A stretch of 56,329 bases of DNA from a virus (taxonomy: Duplodnaviria; Caudoviricetes): IMG/VR virus record IMGVR_UViG_3300031718_000014, positions 1 to 56,329 of that record; one strand, written 5' to 3'. Below are positions 381 through 44,904 of this stretch, piece after piece. Position numbers and translations under genes: made by a program. Positions within the stretch are counted from its first letter, which is position 1, and every line of letters begins with the position of its first letter. A model generated the notes under the pieces. It had not been told where the DNA came from. It worked only from the letters and a program-made list of their open reading frames with translations, and made no database searches.

Positions 381-2105
381 GTGGAACGATTTCTTTCCCG
401 CTGCTCTATCCGGGACCGCGACAGTCACGTCCGCATTCCCTTCGTTCTCAATTACAATCAGAAGCTCATTCATCAAAAGGCCAAAGAGCAGTACGAATCC
501 GGCCAGCCCGTTCGCATTCTCGTAGACAAGGCCCGTCGCGTCGGTGTCTCCTCTTGGTCCGAAGGTCTTCTCTTCTGCCACTGTCTCTCACTCCCCGGTT
601 CCCACGCTATGATAGCCGCTCACGAGTTCAAATCATCCAAAGCTCTGTTCTCCATACCAATGGGCTTCGCAGACTCTGTCCCGTTCCTCAACATAGACGC
701 AGTCGAACGTGAAATGCGCTTCCCTCATCCCTCTTCCGAATCTTTAATGCAGATTATAACCGCCGGAAAGAAAACCAGTGGCAGGGGCTTTACTTTGTCG
801 GCGCTCCACATGTCGGAAGGCGCTCACTACGAATCACCGGAACCTTACATCTCCATGCTCCCCGCTGTTTCTAATCACCGCAACACTATCGTCATCATCG
901 AGACCACACCAAACGGCATGGAAGGCGAGGGCGAGCCCTTCTATCAAATGTGGATGGATGCCATCGGCGGTAAGAACGATTACATCGCGGTCTTCCTCTC
1001 CTGGACCGACGATCCCGCCTGCATCGCTCCAGAAGAGATGGCCAAAGACGCTCCCATAGACGAAGAGGAGAAGGATCTCATCAAGCGCGGTCTATCCCGT
1101 TCCCAACTGGCATGGCGTCGTATGAAGATCAACTCTCCCGAGTGTGGTGGCTTCGTAGACAACTTCCATCAGGAGTTCCCCGTCACTTGGGAAGAGTCTT
1201 TCATTACTTCCGGTATGCCCGCTTTCACTCCCGAAGAAAAGCGCTGGGCTCGCAAGAACATTCGCCCTCCCAAATGGCAAGGTTTCCTAGAACGCCGTCT
1301 CACCGGGGCGTGGGATTTCCGTGAGCATTACAAAGGCGATCTGCGTATCTGGGAGGACCCAAAGTCGGGGCATTATTATTACATCGGTCTGGACGCCGCT
1401 CGTGGTGAAGAAGGGCGGGACTTCTCCGCTTCCGTCTGTTTCGACGGCAACACAGGGCACCAAGCGTTCACCTACGCAGCGCACTGCGTCCCCGAACACT
1501 TCTCCGCTTACATGAACTCAGCTGGTCGCCGTTACAACAAAGCTATGCTCAATCCAGAACTAACTGGCGGCTACGGGTACAACGTCCTTTCTAATCTGCG
1601 CGACGCGTTCCGTTACCCCAACCTCTACTATTGGAAGGGCAAGGACGACAAAGTAGCGGGGAGCACAACTCGCCGCACGTTCGGTTTCGAGACCACCGGC
1701 CACATGCGGACCGTCCTTTTTGAAACCATGCGAGCCTCCATTCGTGAAGCTGCTGGCACTGACGGCGATTACGGCGTCACCATCTACGACGAACAACTGG
1801 CCAGCCAAATCGACCTCTCCACTCGCAAGGACACTCGTATCGACGTAGAGAAGGGTCACGACGACATTCTGTTCGGTGCTATGCTAGCTAACATCGCCAT
1901 GAAGCACTGGGCTCCTCCTCGCAATCCCAATCCTTCCCGTGGCAAGGACGCCGAAGAAGAACGCGCTGCTTTACAGAAAATGCGCGATGACGGTTACGTG
2001 GTGGAAGACGATCACAAGCACGCGCTACAGCGTCATCACGACAAGATCGCCCGGTCCATCAAGTCTTATCGTAGCGACCGGGAATTGGAAATGGAGGAAG
2101 TCTAA
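381..2105 (+). CDS. terL: Terminase large subunit (possible true start ATA at 366)
   Basis: LNYNQ adenine motif, KARRVGVS Walker A, LHMSE Walker B, ETTPNG, IGLDAARG and HDDILFG nuclease motifs. Confidence 0.92.
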   Translation: MERFLSRCSIRDRDSHVRIPFVLNYNQKLIHQKAKEQYESGQPVRILVDKARRVGVSSWSEGLLFCHCLSLPGSHAMIAAHEFKSSKALFSIPMGFADSVPFLNIDAVEREMRFPHPSSESLMQIITAGKKTSGRGFTLSALHMSEGAHYESPEPYISMLPAVSNHRNTIVIIETTPNGMEGEGEPFYQMWMDAIGGKNDYIAVFLSWTDDPACIAPEEMAKDAPIDEEEKDLIKRGLSRSQLAWRRMKINSPECGGFVDNFHQEFPVTWEESFITSGMPAFTPEEKRWARKNIRPPKWQGFLERRLTGAWDFREHYKGDLRIWEDPKSGHYYYIGLDAARGEEGRDFSASVCFDGNTGHQAFTYAAHCVPEHFSAYMNSAGRRYNKAMLNPELTGGYGYNVLSNLRDAFRYPNLYYWKGKDDKVAGSTTRRTFGFETTGHMRTVLFETMRASIREAAGTDGDYGVTIYDEQLASQIDLSTRKDTRIDVEKGHDDILFGAMLANIAMKHWAPPRNPNPSRGKDAEEERAALQKMRDDGYVVEDDHKHALQRHHDKIARSIKSYRSDRELEMEEV

Positions 2106-3270: not shown

Positions 3271-3430
3271 TCCCGATCTGGCACCGCCCTGTTCCCACTG
3301 CGGACAGCCGATGCAGAAGAACACCGCTGTTTCTACTCCCTACGTCACCCAATTCATCTGTGCTTGCATGGGCACCGTTCACTTCGTTAACATTCACAAG
3401 GGAGACAAGACGCGAGAGGGTAAAACCTAA
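3230..3430 (+). CDS. Small zinc-ribbon-like protein (CSHC...CAC), putative ACG start
   Basis: Typical codon usage in the 3' part; GGAG 6 nt before ACG; TAATG coupling to portal. Confidence 0.5.
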   Translation, partial: TTSQSNPVPLGSSNPDLAPPCSHCGQPMQKNTAVSTPYVTQFICACMGTVHFVNIHKGDKTREGKT

Positions 3431-4926
3431 TGGCTTTCACTGTCTTCCGCACTAGCAAGGGCGCTTCTCCCGAGCACACACCAGCCGATTCCGGTTCCGA
3501 GAAGGACCTTCGTTCCCGTCAGATAGATGAGTTGTGTCGGCTCTCTGACAACGCTCGCCGTGAGTTCTACGGTCCCAACCACGACGAAGACACTCGCCAA
3601 TTCTACAACCTTCTGGACAAGACCCGCCGCACCCCCACCTTTCGTCCGAAGATCAGCGCCCCTCAATTGCAAGTCCTTCTTCTCTCCGAGGCCGGAGACT
3701 TGACCGATAGCAGAGTCCGAGTCACTATCAACCATAAAGAGAATGGACGAGACAAAGAGCGCGAGCGAGCTTTTCAGGAGCATTGGCGACAGGAACAGTT
3801 CGATTTTGCCCTTCTCCAGTCGAAGATTTACTCTCAGTTCGCGGGCACTGCATTCATACAAGTTGGCTTCGATCCCCTGGCTAGACGTGGCGATGGCTCT
3901 GTCTGGATGGCAGCAAGGGAGCAGCGTTCCGTCTACTGCGACACAATTAGTCCTTGGCCAAACCATTGGAGCTGGCAAGTCGTAGAAGACCTGATGTACC
4001 TAGACGAGATCAAGCTGCGGTATCCAGACCGCGCCGATCAGATTAAGCCTCGCACAGCCAAAGCAGAACAACTGGCCGGGCCTCCTGCTGGCGGCATCGA
4101 GATGCCTCCCGGTCCCATGAGTGTGACCGTTCGTGGTCTGCCGGGTGGTGAGCAGTACAGCACAGACGGTGTTCTATCGGTCCGCACTCTGTTTGCCAAA
4201 GACTCTTCCATTGTCGAGCCGACCGACGCTCAAGTGGCCGCATTCGAGAAGCGCAACATGGTAGTGCCGAAGTATTTGCCGAAGTATCCTCTCGGTCGGA
4301 TGATCGTAGACTGCGAAGGCACCATTCTAGTAGACGGCCACTCCTGGGTTCCACTCGGTCTCATGTGGCCAGCCATCCCGGTCTGGTCCATGCCACCGTG
4401 GGACAACGTGTGGTGCCCGCCTCCGTCCAAATACAGCCGGTCGTTGCAAGAAGCAGGCGAACGCATGATGAGTCAGACTGAAGAGAACGCGCGACGCCTG
4501 AACAACGGCATGATCGTGATTAACGCCGCTTCCGACCTGACCGCTGATTCTGTCGGCGGTATGCCCGGTGAGATTCTGGTGATCTCCGCTAACTCTCCTC
4601 AGAACGCAGTAGAGATCAAGTACCCTGCTCCCATGCCCGCTCAGATGATCCAACTTCCTCAGACCTACTTCGCATTCCAGAAAGAATTGCAAGGTTTCAC
4701 TGCCGCACGCCAAGGGAATCCCGGTGCTGGTAACGTGGGCTCCGATCTATTTGATTCTGCCGTTAGTCAGTCTCAATCCATCACTCGCTTGCGATCCAAG
4801 CTGTTTAGTTACAGTGTCCAGAAAGCCGCCGAACTGGTCTTCTACACAATGTGCAAGTTCTACAAGAATCCTCGGCACTTCTATTCCAATTTAGCCCGTC
4901 AAGTCCCGGAGCAGAAATCCGCATGA
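3430..4926 (+). CDS. Portal protein, N-terminal/main part
   Basis: Position after terL, size, podovirus-portal-like segments (PKYPLGRMIV, NNGMIVI, GMPGEILV, KFYKNPR). Confidence 0.8.
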   Translation: MAFTVFRTSKGASPEHTPADSGSEKDLRSRQIDELCRLSDNARREFYGPNHDEDTRQFYNLLDKTRRTPTFRPKISAPQLQVLLLSEAGDLTDSRVRVTINHKENGRDKERERAFQEHWRQEQFDFALLQSKIYSQFAGTAFIQVGFDPLARRGDGSVWMAAREQRSVYCDTISPWPNHWSWQVVEDLMYLDEIKLRYPDRADQIKPRTAKAEQLAGPPAGGIEMPPGPMSVTVRGLPGGEQYSTDGVLSVRTLFAKDSSIVEPTDAQVAAFEKRNMVVPKYLPKYPLGRMIVDCEGTILVDGHSWVPLGLMWPAIPVWSMPPWDNVWCPPPSKYSRSLQEAGERMMSQTEENARRLNNGMIVINAASDLTADSVGGMPGEILVISANSPQNAVEIKYPAPMPAQMIQLPQTYFAFQKELQGFTAARQGNPGAGNVGSDLFDSAVSQSQSITRLRSKLFSYSVQKAAELVFYTMCKFYKNPRHFYSNLARQVPEQKSA

Positions 4927-5273
4927 GCGACCCATCAAATCCGTTTGCCGGTCTGTTAGAGAAAATCAACTCCAGTCCAGACGATAACCAAGACGGCAAA
5001 CAGACTGGGGGCGGTGACTCCTCTCGTCCTGACAAAGTCACATGGCAGCCTGACGAAGCCTCTGAGGACTATGATGTTCGCTTATCCGATGGTTCTATTC
5101 GCCCGCAGTCTGAGTCCGCTCTGCGTTCCATGGTCATTGAGCTTCGTAAGGCCAATTTGATCGACGCTCGTCACGCTCTGATGATGCTGGACATCCCGGA
5201 CGCGGACGAGATCGCAGATGCATTGGAGAAAGAATTACAACTCAGTGCGTTGGCAAAGTTGCAGAGAAAATGA
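4923..5273 (+). CDS. Portal protein C-terminal part, encoded as a separate ORF
   Basis: ATGA overlap; YDVRLSDGSIRPQS...LIDARHALMMLDIPDADEI resembles portal C-terminal regions. Confidence 0.65.
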   Translation: MSDPSNPFAGLLEKINSSPDDNQDGKQTGGGDSSRPDKVTWQPDEASEDYDVRLSDGSIRPQSESALRSMVIELRKANLIDARHALMMLDIPDADEIADALEKELQLSALAKLQRK

Positions 5274-5274
5274 T

Positions 5275-5688
5275 TCAGCAGAACTTTCCCCAAAAGGCTG
5301 CTCGTCCTTTGTCAATTGCGTCGCGTCTGTTCTTTTTGTTGTTTCCAAGAAAGAGATGTTCTGGATTCACGCAGAGCGGATTGTCGCAAGTGTGGAGCAC
5401 CAATTTGTTTTTGGGGATGGCTCCAAAATGAATAACCCAAGAAACGTGGTGTGCCCAGTGATTCCTTTTTCTGTTGGGGGCTCCCATGGCAATGAGTCCG
5501 TAGTGATCGTTCGTGGCTCCGATCCAAAACCAACAGCCCTCTGTTTTGTAAACGAACTTCCAGAACCTCTCAGCCACGGGAGTGGCGCGGCATTTATTGC
5601 TGCAAAAGTTGGCTTGGCCGTTTCTGACTTGATAAGGTTTACATTGGAAAGGGCGTTTACATCTTTTACATATTCTGGTTATTGGCAT
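5275..5688 (-). CDS. HNH homing endonuclease
   Basis: CKRC...FCSNKC finger, then CWFWIG...AHHVSW...VLHTCDNPLCVNPEHLFLG; AT-richer, antisense to its operon. Confidence 0.9.
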   Translation of the reverse strand: MPITRICKRCKRPFQCKPYQVRNGQANFCSNKCRATPVAERFWKFVYKTEGCWFWIGATNDHYGLIAMGAPNRKRNHWAHHVSWVIHFGAIPKNKLVLHTCDNPLCVNPEHLFLGNNKKNRRDAIDKGRAAFWGKFC

Positions 5689-5710
5689 GAGCAAGTATAC
5701 TCTCTTTAGT

Positions 5711-5755
5711 AAGGAGATGCAACTGGCTGCATTGGCCAAGCTCCAACGCAAATGA
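5711..5755 (+). pseudogene. Orphaned duplicate of the portal C-terminus (KEMQLAALAKLQRK*)
   Basis: 12/14 aa identical to KELQLSALAKLQRK* at 5229-5273. Confidence 0.85.
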
Positions 5756-5934
5756 CTAACGATTTCTTTCCTCCCGACAACACTTACCGTTCCGTCTCTT
5801 ACGCTGCTCGCTTCTTTGGCCGAGCTGAGCGCACTATTCGCTACTGGGCTCAGTTCGGAGTATTCGCCACTCTCAACATCCCTACCTTCAAAGATCGGAA
5901 GGGCCGCTTGTGGATACGCATTCCCTCTGACTAG
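5752..5934 (+). CDS. Small MerR/excisionase-like HTH protein
   Basis: SVSYAARFFGRAERTIRYWAQFG...GRLWI. Confidence 0.7.
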   Translation: MTNDFFPPDNTYRSVSYAARFFGRAERTIRYWAQFGVFATLNIPTFKDRKGRLWIRIPSD

Positions 5935-5959
5935 TATCTGTACTCCGGCAACACCTACA

Positions 5960-5990
5960 TTGACACTCCCCCTTACCCAGCCTTCATACT
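5960..5990 (+). promoter_or_regulatory. Putative sigma70-like promoter TTGACA-19-CATACT, 7 nt before GTG 5998
   Basis: Perfect -35 in an intergenic gap; long spacer. Confidence 0.4.
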
Positions 5991-5997
5991 CCCACTC

Positions 5998-6261
5998 GTG
6001 CAGCAGCAGAATCAATCTACTAGTTTCGAGTTACTCTCTATCGACCCTTTGTACGACTCTGAAGGTTGGCGCTACGTCGAAGTAGCCGTCAACGGGGTGC
6101 GTGCTCTCCCATTCGCGTTCCACAAGACCGTGGCTTCCCAGTTCCCAACCGAAGACAGTCTGATGGCGTACCTCTGTCGTCAGGCCAAGACCATGATCGA
6201 ACGCTATGGTGATGCACGCAATCCCAAAATTCCCGATGCAAGGGAAGGAAGAGTCAACTGA
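5998..6261 (+). CDS. Hypothetical protein
   Basis: ORF with typical codon usage; no SD. Confidence 0.65.
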   Translation: MQQQNQSTSFELLSIDPLYDSEGWRYVEVAVNGVRALPFAFHKTVASQFPTEDSLMAYLCRQAKTMIERYGDARNPKIPDAREGRVN

Positions 6262-6291
6262 TGGGTCAACTTCATAACAGGAGCAATACTC

Positions 6292-6369
6292 ATGGCCAAG
6301 CGTGGAGGCAGTATGCGTGGTAGGCACATGGGAAAGACTTCCACCCGTCGAGGGGGAAAGCGGTACTAA
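6292..6369 (+). CDS. 25-aa basic micro-peptide MAKRGGSMRGRHMGKTSTRRGGKRY
   Basis: AGGAG SD; not in the ORF track; C-terminus matches the 18794 peptide. Confidence 0.65.
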   Translation: MAKRGGSMRGRHMGKTSTRRGGKRY

Positions 6370-8752: not shown

Positions 8753-9736
8753 GTGGCCTCAGTAACAGGTACCGGTATAAGTACGCCACCTGCACAGTTA
8801 GTTAATACCGTGCAAGCTATTGTGCAAAAGTTTATTGCCCCCGTTCTCGGTGATCAAATTCTGTTACCAAGTCCGACCATGTGGGCTCTTGTCCGTCGTG
8901 GCAAGAAGATGGCTGGCGGCGCTCTGGTCTACCCGGAGTTCTTCTCTGAGGAAACCACCGGTGGCGCTTACTACGGCGCTCAATTGCTCAACACTGCCCT
9001 ACAAGATGTCGTCACCCCGGCTGAGCAGCAGTGGCGGTTCTATTACGAAGCCGTGGTCATTCCGTACACCGACATCATCCTAGGCCGTGGCGGTTACGCC
9101 GGTGTCGATATCGTGCGCCAGAAGTTCCAGACGGCAGCCGGGTCCTTCATGCAGAAGCTGGCCCGCGCTCTGTGGCACACTTCCCCGCAAAACACTTCCC
9201 TGGACATCGACGACATCAACTCATGGCTGGGTCTAACCACCAACAACATCGCCGGGATCGACCGCTCACAAGCAGTCAACGCTTACTGGAAACCTCAAGC
9301 GAACGTCTCCGCTGGCAATGCCAACCTGACCATAGCCAACGCGGACGCGGCCTATTGGTCCACTGTCTTCGGTTACGACGAGCCCGACTTGATGGTCGGG
9401 GATAACACTCGTTTCGCCAACTTCAAGCAAGCCTTCGTCGGCAACATCCGTTATGAGGGTAACATCCAGGACAAGGAAGCGTTGCAAGGCGGCTTCCGTT
9501 ACCACTTCCTGTTCAACAACTGCATCGTGCTCGCAGACCGCAACGCTCCGGCGAACGCGTTCTATATTATGAACACCAAGTACATGTTCCCGGTGTTCCA
9601 CGAAGCCGATTACTTCACTATCGATCCTTGGGTCAAACCAAGTAATCAACGTGTGCTGGTGTCAAATATCTACCTCACGTGGCAATTGGCCGATATGTCG
9701 CCGCGCATGGGAGTAGAAATCACGAACGCTTCCTAA
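8753..9736 (+). CDS. Major capsid protein
   Basis: 327 aa after the scaffold, AAGGAG SD, capsid-like segments (NIAGIDRS, EPDLMV, FYIMNTKY). Confidence 0.82.
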   Translation: MASVTGTGISTPPAQLVNTVQAIVQKFIAPVLGDQILLPSPTMWALVRRGKKMAGGALVYPEFFSEETTGGAYYGAQLLNTALQDVVTPAEQQWRFYYEAVVIPYTDIILGRGGYAGVDIVRQKFQTAAGSFMQKLARALWHTSPQNTSLDIDDINSWLGLTTNNIAGIDRSQAVNAYWKPQANVSAGNANLTIANADAAYWSTVFGYDEPDLMVGDNTRFANFKQAFVGNIRYEGNIQDKEALQGGFRYHFLFNNCIVLADRNAPANAFYIMNTKYMFPVFHEADYFTIDPWVKPSNQRVLVSNIYLTWQLADMSPRMGVEITNAS

Positions 9737-16201: not shown

Positions 16202-17062
16202 ATGGGTGGCTTCGGCAATATCGCTCGGACTATCGGTGGTGTGGGCAACGAAGTCATGGCTGCCCAGACTGGTTTGCAGGACCTTAACCAGAAGCTAGTC
16301 GAAACCAAAGTCAAGAACCTGATGGATCAGTTGAAGATCCAGCAGACTCAGCAGCAGATTAAGAAGGGTGAGACCGATCCCCTACAGCAACAACTCGCAG
16401 CTATGGAACAGATTCTCGGTCGCAAGTTAACCGACCAGGAGAAGATCACTTTTCTAAATCTGCTGCCACCACAAGCGAAGGCGCTTCCTGATACTCCATT
16501 TGCAGCATGGCGTGAGCAGAATCCCACTGCTCCTATATCTGAATGGCTGAAACTGGAGAGTAAGCCAGCAGCACAGTCCACTCCATTTGAAGTGTGGCAC
16601 GCTGCAAATCCCAACGCTTCGGTAGCGGACTGGCTGAAACTGGAACAGAGTGTTAAGCCTAAGAGGGCCGCGACTCCCTCTCCCGCCCTCGACCAGTTAG
16701 TAATCGGTCTGTCTACAGGCCAGATCAACAAATGGCCTACCGGGAAGTTGCTCGCACAGGTACTGACTAGGGCCAAAGAAATGGATATTAAGTTACCCAA
16801 GCAGCCCGGTCTGCCTGACAATTCAGCTAAAGCTATTGCTGCCGCTCAAAAGGAGTACCAGTCCGAACTGGACAAGTACAACAGGTGGAACACCGATCAC
16901 TACATGATGCGGCACTTTGAGGACAACCCTTATAAGCAATCTCTATCTGAGAAGATGGATAAGTTGAAAGCACTTAAGACCGGAGCAGTCACTACTCCCG
17001 GTGCTCTTGGTCCCGCTGGAACCGATCTTTCCGATCTAGGTGCAAAGCCGGTGTCGCCGTAA
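16202..17062 (+). CDS. Putative DNA ejection protein
   Basis: Gln-rich helical protein; position. Confidence 0.6.
   Translation: MGGFGNIARTIGGVGNEVMAAQTGLQDLNQKLVETKVKNLMDQLKIQQTQQQIKKGETDPLQQQLAAMEQILGRKLTDQEKITFLNLLPPQAKALPDTPFAAWREQNPTAPISEWLKLESKPAAQSTPFEVWHAANPNASVADWLKLEQSVKPKRAATPSPALDQLVIGLSTGQINKWPTGKLLAQVLTRAKEMDIKLPKQPGLPDNSAKAIAAAQKEYQSELDKYNRWNTDHYMMRHFEDNPYKQSLSEKMDKLKALKTGAVTTPGALGPAGTDLSDLGAKPVSP
16493..16645 (+). repeat. Internal 29-aa-period repeat (TPFxxWxxxNPxAxxxxWLKLE x2)
   Basis: Seen in translation and in DNA (ACTCCATTTG, TGGCTGAAACTGGA). Confidence 0.8.
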
Positions 17063-19393: not shown

Positions 19394-22300
19394 TTGAAGA
19401 AAACTCTACTCACTGTCCTGTTGTCACTGGCTTTCCTGTTCACATTCTCAGGCAAGTCTCGTGCTCAGGATTTCGTGACATTCGGTCTGACCGCACAAGC
19501 AGCAGCGTGCCCGACTAACCCTGGAAACATATCCACATCCACTTCCGCTGTCACACTAGCTACTGTTAACGCGGGTGGAGCTACATTCACCATCGGGTCC
19601 ACCGCTTTCTCCGGCACTGTGTCGTTCTTCGGGTCCGGTGACGGTGGAACCACTTGGCAGGCTCTCAACGTCACGCCGTCCAATAGCACTACCGCTGTGA
19701 CCACCGCGACAGTGACTGGGCTTTGGCAGGCTAATGTAGCAGCTTACACACATGTTTGCATGGTCGTAACAGCGTTCAGCTCAGGCACTGTGACTGCCAC
19801 TATTCGCAAGTCCACTGTCTCCGCGCGTGCTGGGGGTGGTGGTGGCGGTGGTGGCAGCGGCACAGTTACCAGCGTGGCCACGACAGGCCCGATTACAGGA
19901 GGAACTTTCACCACATCGGGAACCATAGCCTGTGCCACTTGTGTCACGTCGGCAGCTGCACTAACTTCCACCGCTATCGTGACCGGGGCGGGCTTGCAAG
20001 CGGAACAGACCCCCTCTGCCACTTCCACCCTAAGCGCAGCAGGAAACTTAGCCATTGCCGGGTCGGTTTCTACAGGAGGTGCCACAGCGACGTTCGGTAC
20101 TGGTGGCGGGATCTCCATGAATGAAGGGACAGCTGCCACCGGAGCTGCCGGGACCGACATCTGCTATGCGGATTCCACCACTCATTCAGAGAAATGCTCT
20201 TACAACAACGGGACGTTCGGAGTTGTCCCTAATGCAGTCACTGCCCCGGTCACTTTGAGCAATGCCGGGAATATAGGATGTGCCACCTGTGCGACCACGA
20301 CCAACGGGGGAGCGATCAGCGGTACTGCGCCGGTCACCGTCTCCGCAGCCGGAGTGATCGCTTGTGCCATCTGCGCTACCACTACGAACGGCGGCGCAAT
20401 CAGCTTCGACAAGAGCGCCACTGGCCTCATCAACCCGACCGCCGATGCCACGTTCACTTACATCAACACGTCGGTCAGCGGTCTTACTTTGGCAGGCACA
20501 GCTCCGGCATCGTCAGCAGGTGCAGGCACAGCAGCGTCAACTCTGTTCAACGTCAATGCCATCATCGGCGGTGCCAGTACGGGAAGTGCGACCACAGCGG
20601 GAGCGGGATCGGCACCGTCCATAGTGGCAGGAGCAGGCGGGTCGGGTGCAGGTGGGACCAATGCCATCGGTGGTGCAGGCGGGTCTATTGCTCTGACAGC
20701 CGGAGCAGGCGGAGCATCAGGTGGCACAGCCATCAACAGCAACGGCGGTTCCATCAACATGACTGTAGGTTCGGCTGGTACTGGGGGCTCTGGCACTGCG
20801 GGTAAAGCCGGTGTGGTAAGCGTCACTGGACCTACCGCTGGATTCGTTTATCTGACGCAAGGCTCCGCGCCGACCACAGCTAATACCAATATCCCAGCGA
20901 ACACCATCATAGATAACGCTCCTGTATCTGTAACTGCATACTCCATCACCAGGGCAGGAGCGGCTGCTACGGGTCTACCTCACTACGCCAACGCCTCGAA
21001 CGTCATCACCGAGACCATCAGCGCAGTCAACTTGGCTTCTGCGGACGTGACCGGCTTGCTTCCCATTAATGACGTGGGCAGCGCCACCGGAGCTATAGCC
21101 ACCATAGCGGACGGTAACAATCCTCTCACCATCAACTGCGCTTTGACCAGTGGCACCACGTGTCTGACTACCGGAGAGACCACGGCGGCTACTACTGCCG
21201 GGGCAGTGGAGTATCAGATTACCACCCTTACGACTTCGACAGCCATCCCGTTGCAGTTAACTCAAGGTGCTAACGGTCCAGCCAGCGCAAACGCCCCTGC
21301 TTTGTTGAACGTCTCAGCAGCTGCTGCGGGAGGATTGGCCACTGCATCACAAAGCGGTTTCGTAGGCGCACCAATTACTTTTCTAACGGGTGCAGGTTCA
21401 GCAGGCGGAGCGACTACAGGCACAGGCGGCACTGGTGGAGCTTACAACCTGACTACGGGCAACGGCGGCGCAGCAGGCGGGAACACCGCTAACCCTGGCG
21501 GGCAGGGCGGCGCTATCAACGAGACCACCGGCAACGGCATTGTGGGTGCAGCTACAGGAGGAGGAGGAGCGGCAGGAGTCTATCAGTATACTGGTGGGAC
21601 AGGGGGTGCTGGAGGTGCTACGTCCGGGACCGGAGGGGCTGGGGGCGACTTCTTAGTCTCCACTGGAACAGGGGGAGCGGCTACTGCCGGGAGCACTACC
21701 GGGCGAGGTGGAAACGCAACATTCACCCTTGGTTCGGCGGGTGGTACTGGTACAGCAGGTGCTCCTGGTCAAATGAGAATAGCGGCTGGTACTACGGCAG
21801 GAGCCAATACAACACCGTTCATCAATCTGACCGGGACTTGGAATACCACTGGGGTTGTGGATGCAGGGATATTCGAGAACGTCACTAATACTGCGTCGGG
21901 AACAGGTTCACTACTATTGGACCTTCAACTGGCTGGGGCTTCGGAACTCAAATTAGAGAAGACCGGACTCTTAACCGCTGCCAATATCATTCAATCCACC
22001 GTAGGTACACAGGTAGTCTCAGGAGCCGACTATACTAACAGCACCACCACGCCATCCACGGTATTTAGTTGGACTCTCCCTGCCACTGCTGCTGCTAAGA
22101 ATTATCGTTACACCTGCGATATCATGTGGGAGAGCACTAACACCACTCTGACGGGTCCACAGTTCGGAGTGAGTATCTCTGCGGCACCTACGCAACTAAC
22201 TTCCTCTAATTCCGTTCAGAACACCTTGGCTGGAGCCGACATCAACGGGTATATATCAAATACTACAACAGGGCACCAGAATGTGGGTGTCGGCACTGCT

Positions 22301-22469: not shown

Positions 22470-24230
22470 ATGAGATATATAAATCTCTCTTTCAAAATAG
22501 CGGTGCAGGCTTTCCTCGTCGCCATCCTGGCAATAGGTGTGATCGCTCAATTTGGAGGGAACTCCGGCTTCGGGGGAAAGGCAGGGATCAGCGGAGTATC
22601 TGCATTGGTAGGGAACTCCGATTGCGTCAACGTGCTTTCCACGGGAGCGCTGGGCAACAATTCCAACGACGATACTGCCGGATTCGCGGCGGCTATAGCC
22701 AAAGCAGACAACAGCCAGACAGGGCCGCTATGTGTTTCAGTTCCATCCACCGGAAGTTTTTACTTAATTAAGACCTCCACGGGACTGGCCTTACCACGTT
22801 ATGTCCGAATCGTCTGTGATCCCGGTACTGTGATTAAATTCCCCAACGCAAGTGGAACCTTGTTCCAGTATGGAACAGCTACCGGAGTGGACACCACTTA
22901 TCTTCCCGGAGGCATAGAGAACTGCGGTTTGTTAGGCAATAATGGCGGATCGGATACCAGTCGCGGCCTTCAGCTATGCTCCAATTCCACGGGACAGCGT
23001 TGTGATAACGGAGTATTCCGCAACGTCGATATCTGCTGTTTTGGAGAGGACATCGTCTTCTCCGGCACCAGTGGAACCACTACTCCTTATATGGATGTTT
23101 TTGAGGATGTGCGTACTCACGGTGCCATCACAGATGGCCTTCTTTCAGAAGCCAGCGGCATAGGCGAGCCCAGCACTTTTAACGACTCTGTATTTTTCCA
23201 GAACGGTATCGGCTCGGCAACCGGGTGCGCGATTAGGGTAGCGGCGTCCTCGACCATAATCCTCAATATTACGAACGGTCACATAGACAACAATAGCCCT
23301 ACCAGCGGACAGATATGCACACCGGCGACAGGCAGTATAGAACTTCACATGACGCGGGATCACGTCGAGAAGTCTAACGGAGCAGCGTCCACCGATCTTT
23401 CTCTCTTGGGTACAGTAGCTAATTCAGCCATCAGTCAGGTCTTCTTGAACGACGTGGATTTCGTGGAGAATCAGGCAGCAGCCACTACTATTCTGCCATC
23501 CATTACCATCGTCAATGGATCGTTGCGCATAGACAACGGGACCTGGACTTACGCAGCCGGAGCATCCCAAACTCCCCTCATCAATGCCGGAAATAGCGTG
23601 ACTGGCCAAAGTCTGTTCGTCACTCTCAGCAATTCCAAGGCAACTTGTTCCAATACTTCGGCTAACTGCCAGTTCATATCCTTCACAGGCACCACCGCCA
23701 ACGATACGTACAACATAGTAGGGACCACCCTTTTAACTTTTACTTCCGCCACCAACATAGGCAGCTTCGGAAGCGCCAGTGGTATATCGGACTTAACGCT
23801 GAACGGCGGGGGAACCAGCCCCAGCGGGTCTTCCACTGCCACGGGAACGCTCGCGGCTAACGGCATGACCTGTTTTATTGCCTGTCAAGTGGCCGAAGTA
23901 AATCTCGGCAGCGGCCATGTTCTTATTTCAGGCACGGCTCCTACAATCACCACTCATTTTAACACCAGCGGCGACTCTATAGTAAGTAACGGCACGGCTT
24001 CTATAACGGTCACCGTGGGCACTGGTACAGGTACAAGTACCGGGGTTATTGGGTTGCCTACGGCAACGGCGGGGTGGAACTGTCACCTGGAAAATCAGAA
24101 TCGCGCCGATCAGATACAGCAGACAGGAAGCTCAACTGCTTCTGCTACTTTCACCAATTTCGGAACCACTTTTGCAGCGACAAATTGGACTAATGGAGAT
24201 ACCCTAAGAGGCTGGTGCTCAGCTAACTAG
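22470..24230 (+). CDS. Pectate-lyase-3-like beta-helix (tailspike-like) protein with signal peptide
   Basis: VNVLSTGALGNNSNDDTAGFAAAI motif; hydrophobic leader ending VIA-Q. Confidence 0.72.
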   Translation: MRYINLSFKIAVQAFLVAILAIGVIAQFGGNSGFGGKAGISGVSALVGNSDCVNVLSTGALGNNSNDDTAGFAAAIAKADNSQTGPLCVSVPSTGSFYLIKTSTGLALPRYVRIVCDPGTVIKFPNASGTLFQYGTATGVDTTYLPGGIENCGLLGNNGGSDTSRGLQLCSNSTGQRCDNGVFRNVDICCFGEDIVFSGTSGTTTPYMDVFEDVRTHGAITDGLLSEASGIGEPSTFNDSVFFQNGIGSATGCAIRVAASSTIILNITNGHIDNNSPTSGQICTPATGSIELHMTRDHVEKSNGAASTDLSLLGTVANSAISQVFLNDVDFVENQAAATTILPSITIVNGSLRIDNGTWTYAAGASQTPLINAGNSVTGQSLFVTLSNSKATCSNTSANCQFISFTGTTANDTYNIVGTTLLTFTSATNIGSFGSASGISDLTLNGGGTSPSGSSTATGTLAANGMTCFIACQVAEVNLGSGHVLISGTAPTITTHFNTSGDSIVSNGTASITVTVGTGTGTSTGVIGLPTATAGWNCHLENQNRADQIQQTGSSTASATFTNFGTTFAATNWTNGDTLRGWCSAN

Positions 24231-24245
24231 TATCTGGATAAGACT

Positions 24246-25052
24246 ATGTGCATCGGAACTACAAAGCGATTACTTCTCGCTCTCGTATTACTGTTCATCG
24301 CGGTTCAGGGGGCTCAGGCCCAATCCTTAGTCAGTCACACAGAAGGATCGAACAAGACTGCCAGCACTCAGAGCACTATAGCGACTAGTTCTACGATGAA
24401 CGTGGCAAGCGGCAACGCTCTGGTGGCCTGTGTGCGGCAAGGCACCAATAATACAGCGCCAAGTTCGGTTGGCGACGGCGGTTCTAACGCTTTTACGCAC
24501 ATAACGGCATCGGACGCTACATTCAATAGCACCAATCTTTTATCCCTTTGGGTTAACCAGAACTCTGTGGCCAATGCCACGGCAACCTTTACGGCGACAT
24601 GGGGCACCGCACAAGCGTTCAATTCAATCCTAGTGCGGCAGTATTCGGGAGTTGCGACCTCGGGCGCAGTCGATGCATCAGGAACGGGAACTGCTGCCGG
24701 TCCGGTTTCAAGCGTAACGTCATCGGCGTTTACAACCACGCAGGCTACTGAATTGATCTCCGTGTGTGCCACTGGCAGTGGCACGACTCTGACATTTAGC
24801 GCAGGCAGCATAGGGGGCACCACAGCGACCAATCTGCTCGCCGATGGAGCGGGCGGCGCTGAAATGACAGGAGAAGAGGACTTGACCGTTTCCAGTATTC
24901 AGACAGCGATCACCGCCGCAATGAGCAATGGCACCAGCGTAACTGGTTGGGAAATATCCGTCGTGACCTTGAAAGCGCACAGCGGCAGTGCTGGCGGTGC
25001 GGGAGCGGGAGGGACAGCTGGCTTTGGAGGGACAGGGGGAGTTGGTGATTAA
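24246..25052 (+). CDS. Ser/Thr-rich beta protein with signal peptide
   Basis: KRLLLALVLLFIAVQGAQA-QS. Confidence 0.7.
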   Translation: MCIGTTKRLLLALVLLFIAVQGAQAQSLVSHTEGSNKTASTQSTIATSSTMNVASGNALVACVRQGTNNTAPSSVGDGGSNAFTHITASDATFNSTNLLSLWVNQNSVANATATFTATWGTAQAFNSILVRQYSGVATSGAVDASGTGTAAGPVSSVTSSAFTTTQATELISVCATGSGTTLTFSAGSIGGTTATNLLADGAGGAEMTGEEDLTVSSIQTAITAAMSNGTSVTGWEISVVTLKAHSGSAGGAGAGGTAGFGGTGGVGD

Positions 25053-29525: not shown

Positions 29526-29728
29526 TCATTCTCCCTGGCACCCCAATCGACCGCGCTCTATGGGGAGTGTGGGTCATCATGTTCGCAGTTCTTGAAGGTG
29601 TGGGAATCGCTCGCAAGTGGGGCTCAACCAGCTTGACCCGACTGACACTGGCAATAGTTCCGCGTTGGGCGCTTGCAATGGGACTTGGATGGACTGTTTA
29701 CCATTTTCTCATCCAGTACAGTCATTGA
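29519..29728 (+). CDS. Small membrane protein
   Basis: Two hydrophobic segments. Confidence 0.6.
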   Translation: MVIILPGTPIDRALWGVWVIMFAVLEGVGIARKWGSTSLTRLTLAIVPRWALAMGLGWTVYHFLIQYSH

Positions 29729-30240
29729 AAATTTAGATGGGCAAATTCACCAAACATACTCTTGGCAGCTTCATCATAGACTCTCGCTGCAATCTCCTTG
29801 CTTCGATAAAATCCAAGGGCCTTAGTTTTCCCGTGAATTCTGATAGACGCATACCATTTGTTTTTTACCTTGTCCCACGAAACTCCTTTGAAGCCACTGC
29901 GATTGTTGCTACGTATCTTCTGATTTCTATGATTCTGACTACCTACGGCACGTCTCAAATTGCTACGTCGATTGTCAAGGGTATCGTGGTTGCGATGGTC
30001 AGCTTGCTCCCACTTATTACAGTCAAGGATAAGGCGGTGCATGTATATTCCAGACGACCTTCGTTTAGCGTAAAAGCCGCCCATGGAATTTGGCAGAGCG
30101 GTCCAATTCCACTGGTTAAGCCATTCAAAATCGGCAGTGTCTACAAGGGCATTTTGTCTTTTGGTAAGTGGAATAATCTTGTAAGATGGGTCTCGCGGCT
30201 GGGTGACTGCGTGACGCTTCACGCGGTATTTTCTAGGCAT
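29722..30240 (-). CDS. HNH-AP2 homing endonuclease
   Basis: YMHRLI...DHRNHDTLDNRRSNLR plus AP2 domain SGFKGVSW...AARVYDEAA. Confidence 0.92.
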   Translation of the reverse strand: MPRKYRVKRHAVTQPRDPSYKIIPLTKRQNALVDTADFEWLNQWNWTALPNSMGGFYAKRRSSGIYMHRLILDCNKWEQADHRNHDTLDNRRSNLRRAVGSQNHRNQKIRSNNRSGFKGVSWDKVKNKWYASIRIHGKTKALGFYRSKEIAARVYDEAAKSMFGEFAHLNFQ

Positions 30241-40871: not shown

Positions 40872-41388
40872 GCGGACAAACTCCACCGTTATATTCCATT
40901 CCACAGTTACAGTTGTAACAACGAGGCTCGAAACCATCAGGGAATCCGTTGTTTTTCAACCATTGGTATATGTCCTTCTTTATCTGTCTGCGGTGTTCAG
41001 CTCCATCATTGTTGATGTGATGAATCGTTAAGAAACCAAACTCAGTTTCTCCACAACAAGCACAGACCCCACCATAGTGTTCAATTACTAGTTTGCGGAG
41101 TCTCTTTCTATAGTTTCTAGAAAGACGATTGACAATCTCGCGGTGTGTTACCTGATACTCCTTACGATGCACCTGCTGCCACGCTAAGTAATACTCCTTG
41201 TGTTTCGCTCTCCATTGCCGCGCTAATTCGGCATGTCTTCCAGGATGTTCCTTTCTCCACTTTCTTGAGCGCTCCCTTTCTTTTTCTCTCGCTGCCTCAC
41301 TTACATGCAGCTTGTCTGTAGAGCGGTCCACACGACTGCGAGACATGACTAACGGGTCTAAATCGATGGACCGCTCTACGAGACGCAT
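40846..41388 (-). CDS. HNH endonuclease fused to a 31-aa duplicate of the exonuclease N-terminus
   Basis: CACCGE...LTIHHI...CYNCN..CPH; N-terminus MRLVERSIDLDPLVMSRSRVDRSTDKLHVSE. Confidence 0.88.
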   Translation of the reverse strand: MRLVERSIDLDPLVMSRSRVDRSTDKLHVSEAAREKERERSRKWRKEHPGRHAELARQWRAKHKEYYLAWQQVHRKEYQVTHREIVNRLSRNYRKRLRKLVIEHYGGVCACCGETEFGFLTIHHINNDGAEHRRQIKKDIYQWLKNNGFPDGFEPRCYNCNCGMEYNGGVCPHENSRTTN

Positions 41389-42287: not shown

Positions 42288-44750
42288 TTACTTCTCTAAG
42301 GGTTTGGGTATTACTTTACAAATCTCGACTGCTTCAGCAAACCACTTCGGAGCGAACTTCTTGAACTTAGGCCAGAACCACTCAAAGTGGTCGTCAACCA
42401 CTAAGACCTCCGACCAGTCGTCCTCGCTCCTAGTACTTCTCCCTGCCATCTGAACGATCTCCTGCATCGCTTGGTACATAGGATAGTCTCTGTCCCGGTC
42501 GCTGCGAGCCTTGGTGACTAAGTCTCTAGTGTCTGGGAACGGGACTTTGCACAATATCTGCCAGCGACACTCGGAGTCTGGAAAATCAAACCCGGTACTA
42601 ACGCTCGGGCTCACGAGTATGGCCGGGGCTTTGGTCCCTTTAAATCTTCGTATGGTGTCTTGGGAGGACTCTCGTGTGTGGACGAGCATATGCTCTGCGA
42701 ACTCGCTGTTTCTAGCGATCCACTGCGCTCTTTGATAGGAAACAGCGTGGATAATTCCCTTCCCTTGTAGTCTGGGCCTGACGATAGCGTCGATCTTCGA
42801 TATCCAGGCTCGTAAGTGCCCCGGTGTGGCTCGCTTGTCCATGCGTACACTAGGGACAAAATAGACAGGACGCCTACCCACTGGAAAGCTGGAAGGGTAC
42901 TCCCGAAAGTCCACATCGCCATGACCAATACCCAGAAGTTCAAGAGTCTTCGGACGAATCGTGGCGGAGGTAAGAACGACTCTCTTAATCCCACAGAACA
43001 GCCTCCTTTCGGCATAGTCGGCAGGCCACACCGGATCGAAGCGGGCTACTAGGCTCCCGCTGGGTCCTCGCCGCGTCACTTGAAAGACCCAGTCTCCCTG
43101 AGCGGACGATAACTGCGCCAGTTTCCGCTCAAGTTTCTTGAGATGCTTCGCTTGATGCACGGCCCACCGACTGTCGCCGTTATTAGCCAAACCGCCCTTT
43201 ACAGCCGCCTCAAGGTCTTCTCGCTGCGACCGGGCACGGTCCAGCCAAACTCTTGCCGTCAACTTCCATGGTTCAAAGTTAATTAGTTCGGGGAAACGGT
43301 CCTCGTCTACTAACTCCAAGTCGCTAGGGAATAGTTCTACTGCCAGATAGTTACTAAGTTGGTCCAGCGCATCGTGAGCCTCGTCTAGTACCAGCATCCC
43401 GAACGCACCGAGACCGCCGCCGTGTTCCATTTGGTGCATCCAATAGGAGTAGTTGGTAGAGACTAGAGTAACTTGTCTGGCCAACTTCACACGGTCGAAG
43501 TAGACGCAGCCGCTTTCCTTCAACTCGCAGCGAACTCCACCGTGGCACGGTCCTTCGTCGCACTTGATCTCGTCCGCAAAGTCTGTTTGAACATCACGCA
43601 GAGTGATAGTCCGACCGTTCGCTTTGTACAGGCAGGGGTAATTGTTCTGACCACGAACGTCCAATAGACCGCTATCCCCAAAGTCCTTCTCCAACTGATT
43701 CTGCAACCCTCTGGTACTGGTCAGGAATGCGGTACGTTCCCCAGACAATTGCGCCGCTGCCAGATAAGCCAGTGATTTGCCGGAGTTATGCACCACCATT
43801 CCGTTTGCGACAAAGTTTTCGTGCGGTTCACAAGCTATTAGGTCGTATACCTCTTCACTTATTTGCGCTCTCTTGACCCACGATACACGAACCTCTTTAG
43901 GTATCCCTTGATGGAAACTGGTGTGATCTCCATGTAATTTCTGGTGAGCCTCGTGCGTAAGAACCTGCAAGTTATCCAAGTCGTTGTGCGAGCTATCTTC
44001 ATCTCGATGGTGGACGGCAAAAATCTCTGGATCAAGGAATGTTAGTCCTTTTGTATTTCCCCTTCGGCAAACTTCTATGAACTCGTCTATGAATAAGCCG
44101 TTAAGGTTTGCTTCGACAACGATGCAGTGATAAGGAACGCGGTACAACCTGCCTTCCACATGGTTTCCTCTGTGTCTATAAGAACCGGAGTTTCCAGCGT
44201 AGGGATGGTTTTTTAATCCTTGAATTTGTCGATACTGTGCTTTGTGGTGCTTCTTTCCGTTTGATCGCGGTCTTGGTGTATCGCAGATCACTTCATCTGT
44301 GGAGACCAAATCCTCAATGCAAACAAAGCCTCGTGACGTGAGAACCTGATGATCGGGAGTTGCTCGCAATGACTTACCATCACGCAGGGTTAAAAGGACA
44401 GTTTCGCGCCGTCCTGAATAACCTACAGATGAAAATTCGTGAAGTCTTATCTCTTTGCCGTCGAAGCTTCGCGTAAAGGGAAGAATGCCTCTAGCTCTGC
44501 GATTGATATGGTTCTGTTGACAATAAAATTCCTGTTCAATTGTTCGCTGAATACTATTCTTCGCCCGATTCACTTGGACGATAGTGTCCCCAACCACACA
44601 GCCGGTTGGGAGTGCCAGCACCACAAACCGCTTGGTACTCTCAACCGCCCGTAGCGCAGCGTCCTCTTGCCCTGGTCGCCATGACTCAAAGCGTTCTGGC
44701 AGTCCCAACCCACTGGGCTCTGGGAGTATTCCGATGGAACTAACTGGCAA
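42288..44750 (-). CDS. DinG/Rad3-like SF2 helicase containing an intein
   Basis: RPGQ, PTG[intein]SGKS, DEAH, LTSAT, GFDFP, KVPFP, QMAGRSTRSEDD; AGGAG then TTG. Confidence 0.9.
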   Translation of the reverse strand: MPVSSIGILPEPSGLGLPERFESWRPGQEDAALRAVESTKRFVVLALPTGCVVGDTIVQVNRAKNSIQRTIEQEFYCQQNHINRRARGILPFTRSFDGKEIRLHEFSSVGYSGRRETVLLTLRDGKSLRATPDHQVLTSRGFVCIEDLVSTDEVICDTPRPRSNGKKHHKAQYRQIQGLKNHPYAGNSGSYRHRGNHVEGRLYRVPYHCIVVEANLNGLFIDEFIEVCRRGNTKGLTFLDPEIFAVHHRDEDSSHNDLDNLQVLTHEAHQKLHGDHTSFHQGIPKEVRVSWVKRAQISEEVYDLIACEPHENFVANGMVVHNSGKSLAYLAAAQLSGERTAFLTSTRGLQNQLEKDFGDSGLLDVRGQNNYPCLYKANGRTITLRDVQTDFADEIKCDEGPCHGGVRCELKESGCVYFDRVKLARQVTLVSTNYSYWMHQMEHGGGLGAFGMLVLDEAHDALDQLSNYLAVELFPSDLELVDEDRFPELINFEPWKLTARVWLDRARSQREDLEAAVKGGLANNGDSRWAVHQAKHLKKLERKLAQLSSAQGDWVFQVTRRGPSGSLVARFDPVWPADYAERRLFCGIKRVVLTSATIRPKTLELLGIGHGDVDFREYPSSFPVGRRPVYFVPSVRMDKRATPGHLRAWISKIDAIVRPRLQGKGIIHAVSYQRAQWIARNSEFAEHMLVHTRESSQDTIRRFKGTKAPAILVSPSVSTGFDFPDSECRWQILCKVPFPDTRDLVTKARSDRDRDYPMYQAMQEIVQMAGRSTRSEDDWSEVLVVDDHFEWFWPKFKKFAPKWFAEAVEICKVIPKPLEK
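43785..44600 (-). mobile_element. Intein (272 aa) with HNH endonuclease domain
   Basis: N-terminal CVVGDT, block B ATPDH, VYDL...NFVANGMVVHN followed by Ser; VHHRDEDSSHNDLDNL. Confidence 0.93.
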
Positions 44751-44904
44751 CTTGTGTTTGCTCCTGTGGCTTTGGTGTTCCACTGCCTTTGCATCGGTGG
44801 TGCGTTCGCTTGTTCCTGTGATCCACAATGGTTCCGTCCGACCACAGACGTACCAGTCTGCCGCACACGTCGCAGGGTATTCGGATCTCACTTTGAGTTT
44901 TCAT
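44740..44904 (-). CDS. 54-aa zinc-finger-like protein (CDVC...H...CKGSG)
   Basis: TAATG-coupled, GGAG SD; not in the ORF track. Confidence 0.6.
   Translation of the reverse strand: MKTQSEIRIPCDVCGRLVRLWSDGTIVDHRNKRTHHRCKGSGTPKPQEQTQVAS

Follow-up and report, generated by a model that had tools for sequence, protein, structure and literature searches.

We found that the 3′ end of a phage portal gene is occupied by an antisense HNH endonuclease gene, which lies between two versions of the same coding end. The window, that is, the whole stretch of DNA that we analyzed, is a complete virus record of 56,329 bp with direct terminal repeats. Very probably, a free-standing HNH_3 gene entered the 3′-terminal coding part of the portal gene in the form of a cassette, consisting of a diverged but protein-conserving tail and the HNH gene, which is arranged tail-to-tail and antisense to it. 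By such an invasion, the portal ORF would have come to end in the tail of the cassette, and the old tail would have been pushed 482 nt downstream, outside the portal, where it would keep the stop–start overlap with the next gene.

The portal 3′ end and the HNH gene

The packaging and head module, including the terminase, portal, several small genes, and the major head protein, is located at the left end of the window (Table 1). The portal is split into two cistrons joined by an ATGA overlap, and the tail is part of the small one. This split was missing from the initial annotation of the sequence. The 18 best homologs of the large cistron are 497–512 aa long, and more distant homologs are fused forms of 557–574 aa; the small cistron aligns with the C-terminus of fused 567-aa portals.

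The GC content is 0.43–0.49 across most of the 482-nt block, compared with 0.50–0.62 in its flanks. A single base separates the TGA of the replacement tail (copy 1) from the antisense stop of the HNH gene. At the other end of the block, the TGA of the displaced tail (copy 2; 5753–5755) overlaps the ATG of the next gene (5752–5754), and this tail is read in an open frame that extends back to 5636 and contains an ATG at 5687. The initial annotation had described two tail copies at an offset of 482, with an antisense HNH gene between them, which proved exact to the base, and the ATGA overlap that it had noted for the downstream copy is read in the sequence at 5752–5755. A search of 4800–6300 for sigma-70-like promoters and for terminators gave none around the HNH gene.

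Table 1. Features of the portal 3′ end, the surrounding module, and the second cassette in the window (L numbers denote loci of relatives)
Feature	Position	Strand	Evidence or remark
Terminase large subunit	381–2102		phrog_2
Portal, large N-terminal cistron, 498 aa	3430–4926	+	phrog_156, E = 1.7e-9, profile positions 103–468 of 681
Portal, small C-terminal cistron, 116 aa	4923–5273	+	phrog_156, E = 2.5e-4, profile positions 480–571
Inserted block, 482 nt, made up of the replacement tail, a 1-nt spacer, and the antisense HNH gene with a 22-nt leader	5229–5710		Absent in 17 direct-junction relatives
Replacement (working) tail, copy 1: last 14 portal codons, KELQLSALAKLQRK, and stop	5229–5273	+	Ends the 116-aa portal ORF
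HNH_3 endonuclease gene, 137 aa and stop	5275–5688	−	PF13392, phrog_1872
HNH gene leader, AAAGAGAG purine run upstream of ATG	5689–5710	−	Read from sequence
Displaced tail, copy 2: KEMQLAALAKLQRK and stop, outside the portal ORF	5711–5755	+	Host-typical codons; 44 of 45 nt identical to the working tail of L024
Next gene, 60 aa	5752–5934	+	No family; homologs come after the portal in relatives
Major head protein	8753–9733		phrog_9953
Second cassette, 195-aa ORF	41433–40846	−	HNH family phrog_2255, E = 1.4e-7; ATG read at 41388
Second cassette, next gene	From 40871 downward	−	

The two tail copies are identical at 31 of 45 nt, and 9 of the 14 differences fall at third codon positions. Five of the 15 codons, among them the stop, are identical, eight carry synonymous and two non-synonymous differences, and 12 of the 14 residues are shared. 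The earlier statement that the protein is conserved while the DNA has diverged is thus borne out, given that 14 of 45 nt but only 2 of 14 residues differ. When all six frames of the 56-kb window were compared with the first copy, every other 14-mer agreed at fewer than 7 of 14 positions, and the tail pair was among the few matches not of low complexity in a window-wide screen for same-strand peptide repeats at most 2.5 kb apart. When neutral decay was simulated by placing 14 random substitutions in the second copy, 8.6 amino acid changes resulted on average, and 2 or fewer changes occurred in 0 of 100,000 simulations. It follows that both copies evolved as working portal tails and were brought together later; judging from their sequences, the tail copies are two once-functional alleles and not the product of an in-situ duplication.

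The copies also differ in composition. Copy 1 has a GC content of 0.38 and a GC3 of 0.43, and its mean ln RSCU is in the lowest 3.7% of portal 14-codon windows, whereas copy 2 has a GC content of 0.52 and a GC3 of 0.64 and is at the 56th percentile (mean ln RSCU was computed against the long ORFs of the window and ranked among portal 14-codon windows). The upstream copy is therefore A/T-rich and the downstream copy genome-typical, as initially described. For comparison, the GC content is 0.47 in the HNH gene and 0.54–0.55 in the portal.

The HNH ORF matched PF13392 (HNH_3) with an E-value of 1.1e-10 and 41.4 bits (curated cut-off: 24.8), where residues 77–122 covered profile positions 1–46 of 46, and it also matched phrog_1872 ("endonuclease") with an E-value of 2e-26. 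Beyond a sub-threshold match to zf-His_Me_endon, no other Pfam family was found in this ORF. An AlphaFold2 model based on a 37-sequence alignment had a mean pLDDT of 92.1 and a pTM of 0.77. When the model was searched against PDB folds, I-HmuI (1u3e) was the best match (E = 4.1e-3, probability 1.00, 78 columns), followed by I-PpoI as the second-best protein (E = 7.4e-3); both are His-Me finger homing endonucleases, and the fold match is weak, as no match reached an E-value of 0.001. A phmmer search of PDB sequences with the HNH protein gave no match. The ORF is intact, and H99, C101, D102, C106, H111, N120, and D123 are invariant in 37 of 37 aligned homologs, the protein of the window included, which indicates that the gene has not decayed. 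By its family, fold, core residues, and sporadic presence among relatives, the 137-aa protein is identified as an HNH_3 (I-HmuI-like, His-Me finger) homing endonuclease. Pfam detected no intein domain in the ORF, and an Rfam scan of 4600–6200 at E ≤ 1 detected no group I or II intron, returning one chance-level sRNA match (E = 0.74). Along with the location of the tail and the HNH gene on opposite strands, this is in line with the proposal in the initial annotation that the element entered without an intron or intein.

Relatives of the portal locus and a second cassette

We retrieved relatives using an alignment of portal homologs, which yielded 21 loci when run against viral contigs and 62 against metagenome contigs, with many contigs present in both collections. 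The alignment query was needed, as neither the single portal protein searched against viral contigs nor tblastn against a phage collection gave matches. The loci represent 43 distinct portal 3′ ends, including that of the window. A direct junction without an HNH gene, in which the portal stop is at most 40 nt from the projected start of the homolog of the 60-aa gene, was present in 16 of the 43; one further locus (L012) has a direct junction and an HNH gene only beyond the next gene. Homologous antisense HNH genes were found in three (the window, L008, and L020), and L015 carries a plus-strand HNH gene with 42% identity directly after the portal. Another eight have other inserts of 76–587 nt, and the remaining 14, which are distant relatives or short contigs, have no recognizable homolog of the 60-aa gene. 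In empty relatives, the 60-aa gene begins at the stop–start overlap with the portal. No HNH-minus relative among the 43 distinct portal 3′ ends has two tails. The initial annotation had predicted that the portal of HNH-minus relatives runs directly into a tail of the downstream type and had named the retention of both copies in such relatives as evidence to the contrary; HNH-minus relatives indeed join the portal directly to a single tail, and that of L024 is of the downstream type.

The closest relative, L023, is HNH-minus, with 98.8% amino acid and 88.9% nucleotide identity over the large portal cistron, and its portal stop and the start of the next gene overlap as ATGA. L024, the other of the two closest relatives and also HNH-minus, has 88.6% amino acid identity in the large cistron. 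The tail of L024 matches copy 2 at 44 of 45 nt and 14 of 14 residues, compared with 30 of 45 nt for copy 1. The tail of L023 is about equidistant from the two (33 of 45 nt for copy 1 and 32 of 45 nt for copy 2), with its last 30 nt closer to copy 1 (25 of 30, by our own count).

The HNH homologs in L008 and L020 (59% and 54% amino acid identity, respectively) are antisense and located at the same site, and the convergent stops of portal and HNH genes are separated by 1 nt in both the window and L020 and by 2 nt in L008. The working tails of L008 and L020 read KELAMAALAKGVKK, and those of close HNH-minus relatives read REMALAALAKGVKK (L009) and KEMALAALAKGVKK (L019). The DNA identity is 83% between L009 and L008 and 91% between L019 and L020, yet 10 and 12 of the 14 tail codons, respectively, are different. 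Putative remnants downstream, KEISLAAIA with a stop in L008 and REMPIADIT in L020, were considered as displaced tails and dismissed: they are too degenerate to be significant alone, were unaligned by BLAST, and were unranked in the flank screen described below. Likewise, a Met-to-Leu exchange in all three occupied tails was rejected as a general mark of target-site immunity, as Leu also occurs in several empty relatives.

A second peptide-repeat pair was found on the minus strand of the same genome (Table 1), in a cassette that spans 41388–40776. Its HNH is unrelated to the portal HNH, and its first 32 codons, counted from the ATG at 41388, are a copy of the start of the next gene; the two copies share 21 of 32 residues and 57 of 96 nt. 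Two HNH-minus relatives of this gene, L165 and L166, have 89% protein identity. The start fused to the second HNH (GC 0.53) is identical to those of L165 and L166 at 85 and 84 of 96 nt and at 30 and 29 of 32 residues, respectively, whereas the working start (GC 0.41) is identical at only 63 and 57 of 96 nt and at 21 of 32 residues in both comparisons. As judged by sequence, it is beyond doubt that the HNH-fused, host-typical start is the native one and that the AT-richer start is the replacement. The second cassette is a mirror image of the portal case in which the AT-rich copy is foreign, which supports the same reading at the portal. In addition, the 56-kb genome holds an intein and a plain intergenic HNH-AP2 gene.

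We screened the flanks of 106 HNH_3 places in the fetched loci, of which 105 had enough flank to be scored. Ten scored at least 50, and the tail pair of the window scored 58. In L141, L137, and L145, an HNH_3 ORF of 254–257 aa opens with a copy of the first 15–19 residues of the downstream helicase gene, where the case of L137 consists solely of an identical peptide pair in the flank screen. In L140, both copies lie within one 669-aa frame, which was taken for a methylase by eye. L111, with a score of only 41, has an HNH_3 ORF whose opening 11 residues duplicate the beginning of the next gene. The matches of L139, L114, L085, and L160 were set aside as low-complexity frames by eye, and similar C-terminal stretches on both sides of the HNH match in L131 were judged to be domains of endonuclease-like ORFs and not the end of a host gene.

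Origin of the tails and rival explanations

The replacement tail (copy 1) most likely belongs to the mobile cassette and travels with the HNH gene, as suggested by its atypical composition, the conserved stop-to-stop junction, and the second cassette as a replicate. The same three observations support the initial proposal that the element restored the host gene with a copy of its own. The assignment of copy 1 as foreign and copy 2 as native draws on composition, L024, and the replicate cassette, and the nearest relative, L023, gives no decision. The HNH gene also coincides with a mosaic boundary. To its left, the window is 88.8–88.9% identical to L023 and 73.5–78.8% identical to L024, whereas to its right (5711–5934), the window is closer to L024 (88.1%) than to L023 (81.4%). 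This boundary fits recombination at the endonuclease gene, of a kind reported for other phages in the work described in PMC10448857. The displaced tail may be the recipient's own or may have been brought along from a previous L024-like host, and the mosaic boundary allows either.

Sequence identity between the window and L023 decreases towards the insertion (89, 89, 89, 84, 78, 73, and 73% in 45-nt bins; Fisher P = 2e-5), as does that between L020 and L019 (93, 96, 93, 89, 87, 82, 87, and 69%; Fisher P = 7e-6). However, a similar fall in the last 45 nt was seen in two of four empty–empty pairs (from 0.93 to 0.80 in L002–L003 and from 0.87 to 0.71 in L019–L046), and we therefore do not take the fall as specific evidence of a co-conversion tract. 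Instead, it indicates rapid divergence of the portal end in this group, irrespective of the present occupancy by an HNH gene, and is compatible with past rounds of invasion and loss.

The mosaic boundary could also reflect a different history, in which copy 1 is the lineage's own tail and the HNH gene, copy 2, and the 5′ part of the next gene were recombined in from an L024-like phage, copy 2 being kept only for the start region of the next gene. Such a history would account for the shift in similarity from L023 to L024 across the HNH gene and for the resemblance between the last 30 nt of copy 1 and the L023 tail, and in empty relatives the ribosome-binding stretch and the overlapping start that belong to the next gene do lie in the tail. 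We nevertheless regard it as unlikely: copy 1 deviates most in composition within the region and sits 1 nt from the HNH stop, with close spacing also in L008 and L020, and the AT-rich copy is the foreign one in the replicate cassette. As a model of the type proposed for yeast WHO elements (see below) moves both copies in later transfers, this history would differ from the invasion by a cassette in its course and not in kind. Far less probable is an in-situ tandem duplication of the portal end by replication slippage, followed by divergence and by an HNH gene landing between the copies by chance. Although the insert is flanked by direct repeats, the 14 nucleotide and 2 amino acid changes were out of reach of non-coding decay in the simulations, copy 2 is nearly identical to the working tail of another phage (L024), and two copies occur in no HNH-minus relative.

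Packaging-associated HNH proteins (HK97 gp74-like) are of the PF01844 type, co-oriented with the terminase and portal genes, and conserved in relatives. Kala et al. are said to have described, in 2014, HNH proteins encoded beside the terminase and portal genes of HK97-like phages as packaging helpers. Given that the HNH gene of the window is within the packaging module and adjoins the portal, with the terminase large subunit encoded nearby, it might be such a domesticated helper and not mobile. We dismissed this candidate as highly improbable, because no PF01844 match was found anywhere in the genome, and the gene is antisense to the module, belongs to the HNH_3 family, has a foreign composition, and is present at the site in only 3 of 43 distinct relatives, with the nearest relatives lacking it. 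The tandem arrangement might also be an assembly artefact joining two strain variants of the portal end, as the record is a metagenome assembly, related strains co-occur, and run X2 holds variant contigs around the tail. In the likely source run (X1), however, a second assembler (Logan) gave the same arrangement, with an independent contig containing 4700–6200 in one 31-kb piece with 0 differences. A second soil run, from another study, contained 4728–5652 (portal end, working tail, and most of the HNH gene), again with 0 differences. The same run contained a 281-nt contig in which the portal end of a relative leads straight into a tail of the copy 2 type, and its loose end before 5717 reads as the codons preceding the tail. 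No joint skipping the HNH gene was found in the contigs of the two soil runs, where contigs speak for presence only and are silent on polymorphism within one strain. The same architecture in L008 and L020, which come from other samples, and the intact HNH ORF between the copies also count against an artefact, which we consider extremely improbable.

The mechanism that we propose for the invasion by a cassette is modelled on yeast WHO elements and fungal mitochondrial mORFs. In this model, the enzyme would nick or cut the HNH-minus allele in or near the tail, and repair would copy the cassette, i.e., the tail and the HNH gene, from an occupied genome. The portal body would serve as the left homology arm, and the displaced tail and the next gene as the right arm. 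As one base in three differs between the new tail and the sensitive allele, the occupied allele would no longer be a target. We infer the cleavage, the position of its site, the immunity of the occupied allele, and the role of the remnant as a homology arm from these known systems.

Known systems and implications

The initial annotation had pointed to similar end-replacement in fungal mitochondrial homing endonucleases, and the same layout is indeed described in PMC3630166 and PMC6279837. Fungal mitochondrial mORF "gene hybrids" are described for atp6 of Allomyces macrogynus and for atp6, atp9, cox2, and nad3 of Glomus (PMC3630166), and C-terminal duplications for cob and atp6 of Endoconidiophora resinifera (PMC6279837). 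As in the phage, neither an intron nor an intein is involved in the cases described in these reports, and an inserted C-terminus, DNA-divergent but protein-conserving, is separated from the native one downstream by an endonuclease ORF; the native copy is near the version of relatives, whereas the inserted copy is not (PMC3630166). Unlike the phage enzyme, which is an antisense HNH_3 protein, the mORF enzymes described there are of the LAGLIDADG or GIY-YIG type and often in phase with the host gene. The phage replacement is also limited to 14 codons, and its displaced copy, unlike those described for mORFs, keeps a stop–start overlap with the next gene.

The yeast WHO elements at FBA1 provide another parallel, in that a duplicated 3′ fragment downstream of the endonuclease gene is the second homology region (Coughlan et al. 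2020, PMC7282813). The alleles are reported to diverge sharply downstream of the cut site (PMC7282813). In contrast to the phage cassette, the WHO proteins described in that study are intein-derived and carry a zinc finger, the fragments are approximately 400 bp, and the elements occur in clusters; moreover, cleavage and resistance were demonstrated there by experiment (PMC7282813), whereas they are proposed for the phage cassette. Judging from its layout, the phage cassette would work like the mORF and WHO end-replacement elements and is not a member of either by descent, its enzyme being HNH_3.

Among phages, the "intronless homing" of the T4 seg and mob genes is similar in that free-standing phage genes, including those for the HNH-type Mob proteins, are present in some relatives and absent in others (Edgell et al. 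2010, PMC2988022). As summarized in that review, these endonucleases are propagated by break repair, in which the flanks are co-converted; they are located between genes and cleave at sites that are hundreds or thousands of bp distant (PMC2988022). The portal HNH gene differs in being inside a coding end and accompanied by a replacement. The word stem "duplicat" does not occur in this review of T4-like homing endonucleases. T4 mobA with the gene 60 bypass element (bioRxiv 10.1101/2022.08.31.505936) is likewise a phage HNH gene that reportedly travels with an accessory. Neither RNA nor protein splicing is needed in that case for the invaded essential gene to stay functional, although the accessory of mobA is a translational bypass with a gene split and not a duplicated gene end. 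An HNH insertion of ShiLan in mycobacteriophage methylase genes is also within a coding region without an intron or intein, and its authors remarked on a likeness between the opening 11 residues of the insert and the 11 that follow the insertion site (PMC11855218). Unlike the portal insertion, however, the ShiLan insert is read through in frame, with the HNH in another frame of the same strand, and the likeness is discussed in that report as a possible intron signature.

In the literature searched, we found no paper describing gene-end replacement by homing endonucleases in phages. The layout is known from fungal mitochondria and yeast, and the phage case is a real and well-supported example of it that introduces no new principle. 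The second cassette and the other loci suggest that this layout is common in phages, though we found no printed description of it for them.

The occupied and empty alleles together show how a selfish endonuclease can occupy the end of an essential structural gene, within its coding sequence, without a cost to the gene that it invades, with the junction before the last 14 portal codons as the candidate target. For annotators, short orphan gene ends beside HNH genes may be read as homing footprints. Such insertions would also help account for local peaks in synonymous divergence and for mosaic boundaries at phage gene ends. This one 56-kb soil phage holds both the 3′ and the 5′ forms with unrelated HNH enzymes, and end replacement may be a general route by which phage HNH genes enter essential coding regions without an intron or intein, with the displaced end possibly serving both as a homology arm and in coupling to the next gene; we would give this broader reading an even chance. 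If it is true, the junction between the portal and the next gene would be a recurrent landing pad behind the mosaicism in this phage group.

The portal junction

The portal's junction with the homologue of the downstream 60-aa gene is a hot spot for insertions. Eight distinct relatives (L004, L006, L011, L014, L018, L021, L047 and L060) had other inserts here, 76-587 nt in length, some of which contained ORFs of 142-278 aa. In a further locus, L015, the portal stop was followed at once by a plus-strand HNH gene (42% identity), and a second HNH gene lay 3′ of the gene that follows the portal and HNH. In a comparison of window positions 4624-5934 with the HNH-minus relatives L023 and L024, the portal HNH gene marks a mosaic boundary: 5′ of it the window was nearer L023 than L024, and 3′ of it nearer L024 than L023.

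The frame of the displaced tail (the former last portal codons) was open from 5636 on (5636-5755), with an ATG at 5687 sharing its central bases with the start codon of the HNH gene on the opposite strand. A 22-codon mini-ORF starting there would end at the old portal stop and could keep the 60-aa gene in stop-start coupling. The putative remnant frame of L008, which has a homologous antisense HNH gene at the same portal site, likewise terminated in an ATGA overlap.

A portal in two cistrons

The division of the portal into two cistrons is natural. The closest homologues of the large cistron (n = 18) were of similar size (497-512 aa), and fused portals of 557-574 aa occurred among more distant homologues. 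What lay between the two pieces varied: an 86-aa ORF with an ATGA overlap at either end in L023 (1545-1803), a 10-nt spacer with GGAGG in L024 (1400-1412), and an 83-aa ORF in L005 (6482-6733). For a portal to come in two pieces that enclose a landing site looks unusual.

Separately, short peptide repeats, Gly/Ala/Thr-rich and others, were present in tandem or dispersed within large structural ORFs of the window (16520-16642, 19916-21693 and 22554-25042).

Portal cistrons and further endonuclease elements in the window
Feature	Position	Strand	Description
Portal, large cistron	3430-4926	+	498 aa
Portal, small cistron	4923-5273	+	116 aa; ATGA overlap with large cistron
Mirror-type HNH cassette	41388-40776	-	HNH ORF matching phrog_2255
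Helicase with intein	42288-44891	-	867 aa; Helicase_C_2, DEAD
HNH-AP2-type ORF	29722-30240	-	172 aa; sub-threshold AP2 match (E 8.2e-6) and HNH_3 match (E 0.002)

Gene-end copies and other endonuclease elements

Copies of a host gene end were also found beside other HNH_3 genes, in L141, L145, L137, L111 and L140. In L141 (2168-2990) and L145 (2150-2960) the HNH was fused to a helicase N-terminus, with the second copy at the helicase start, and in L111 (416-1010) it was fused to 11 codons from the start of the gene that follows; L140 (1877-3886) had a single 669-aa frame in which two similar 26-residue stretches flanked the HNH.

The window itself contained a second cassette, of mirror type, with this layout at a gene 5′ end. 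Its HNH ORF was joined to the native version of codons 1-32 of the downstream 224-aa gene, and that gene was restored by a replacement start that is diverged and richer in AT; L165 and L166, relatives without the HNH, had the native start version. The helicase intein (PF14890, E 3.2e-10) contained an HNH_3-like domain, and its insertion point, judged by eye, was the P-loop. The HNH-AP2-type ORF, antisense to the plus-strand genes on both its sides, would be the fourth endonuclease element of one 56-kb genome.
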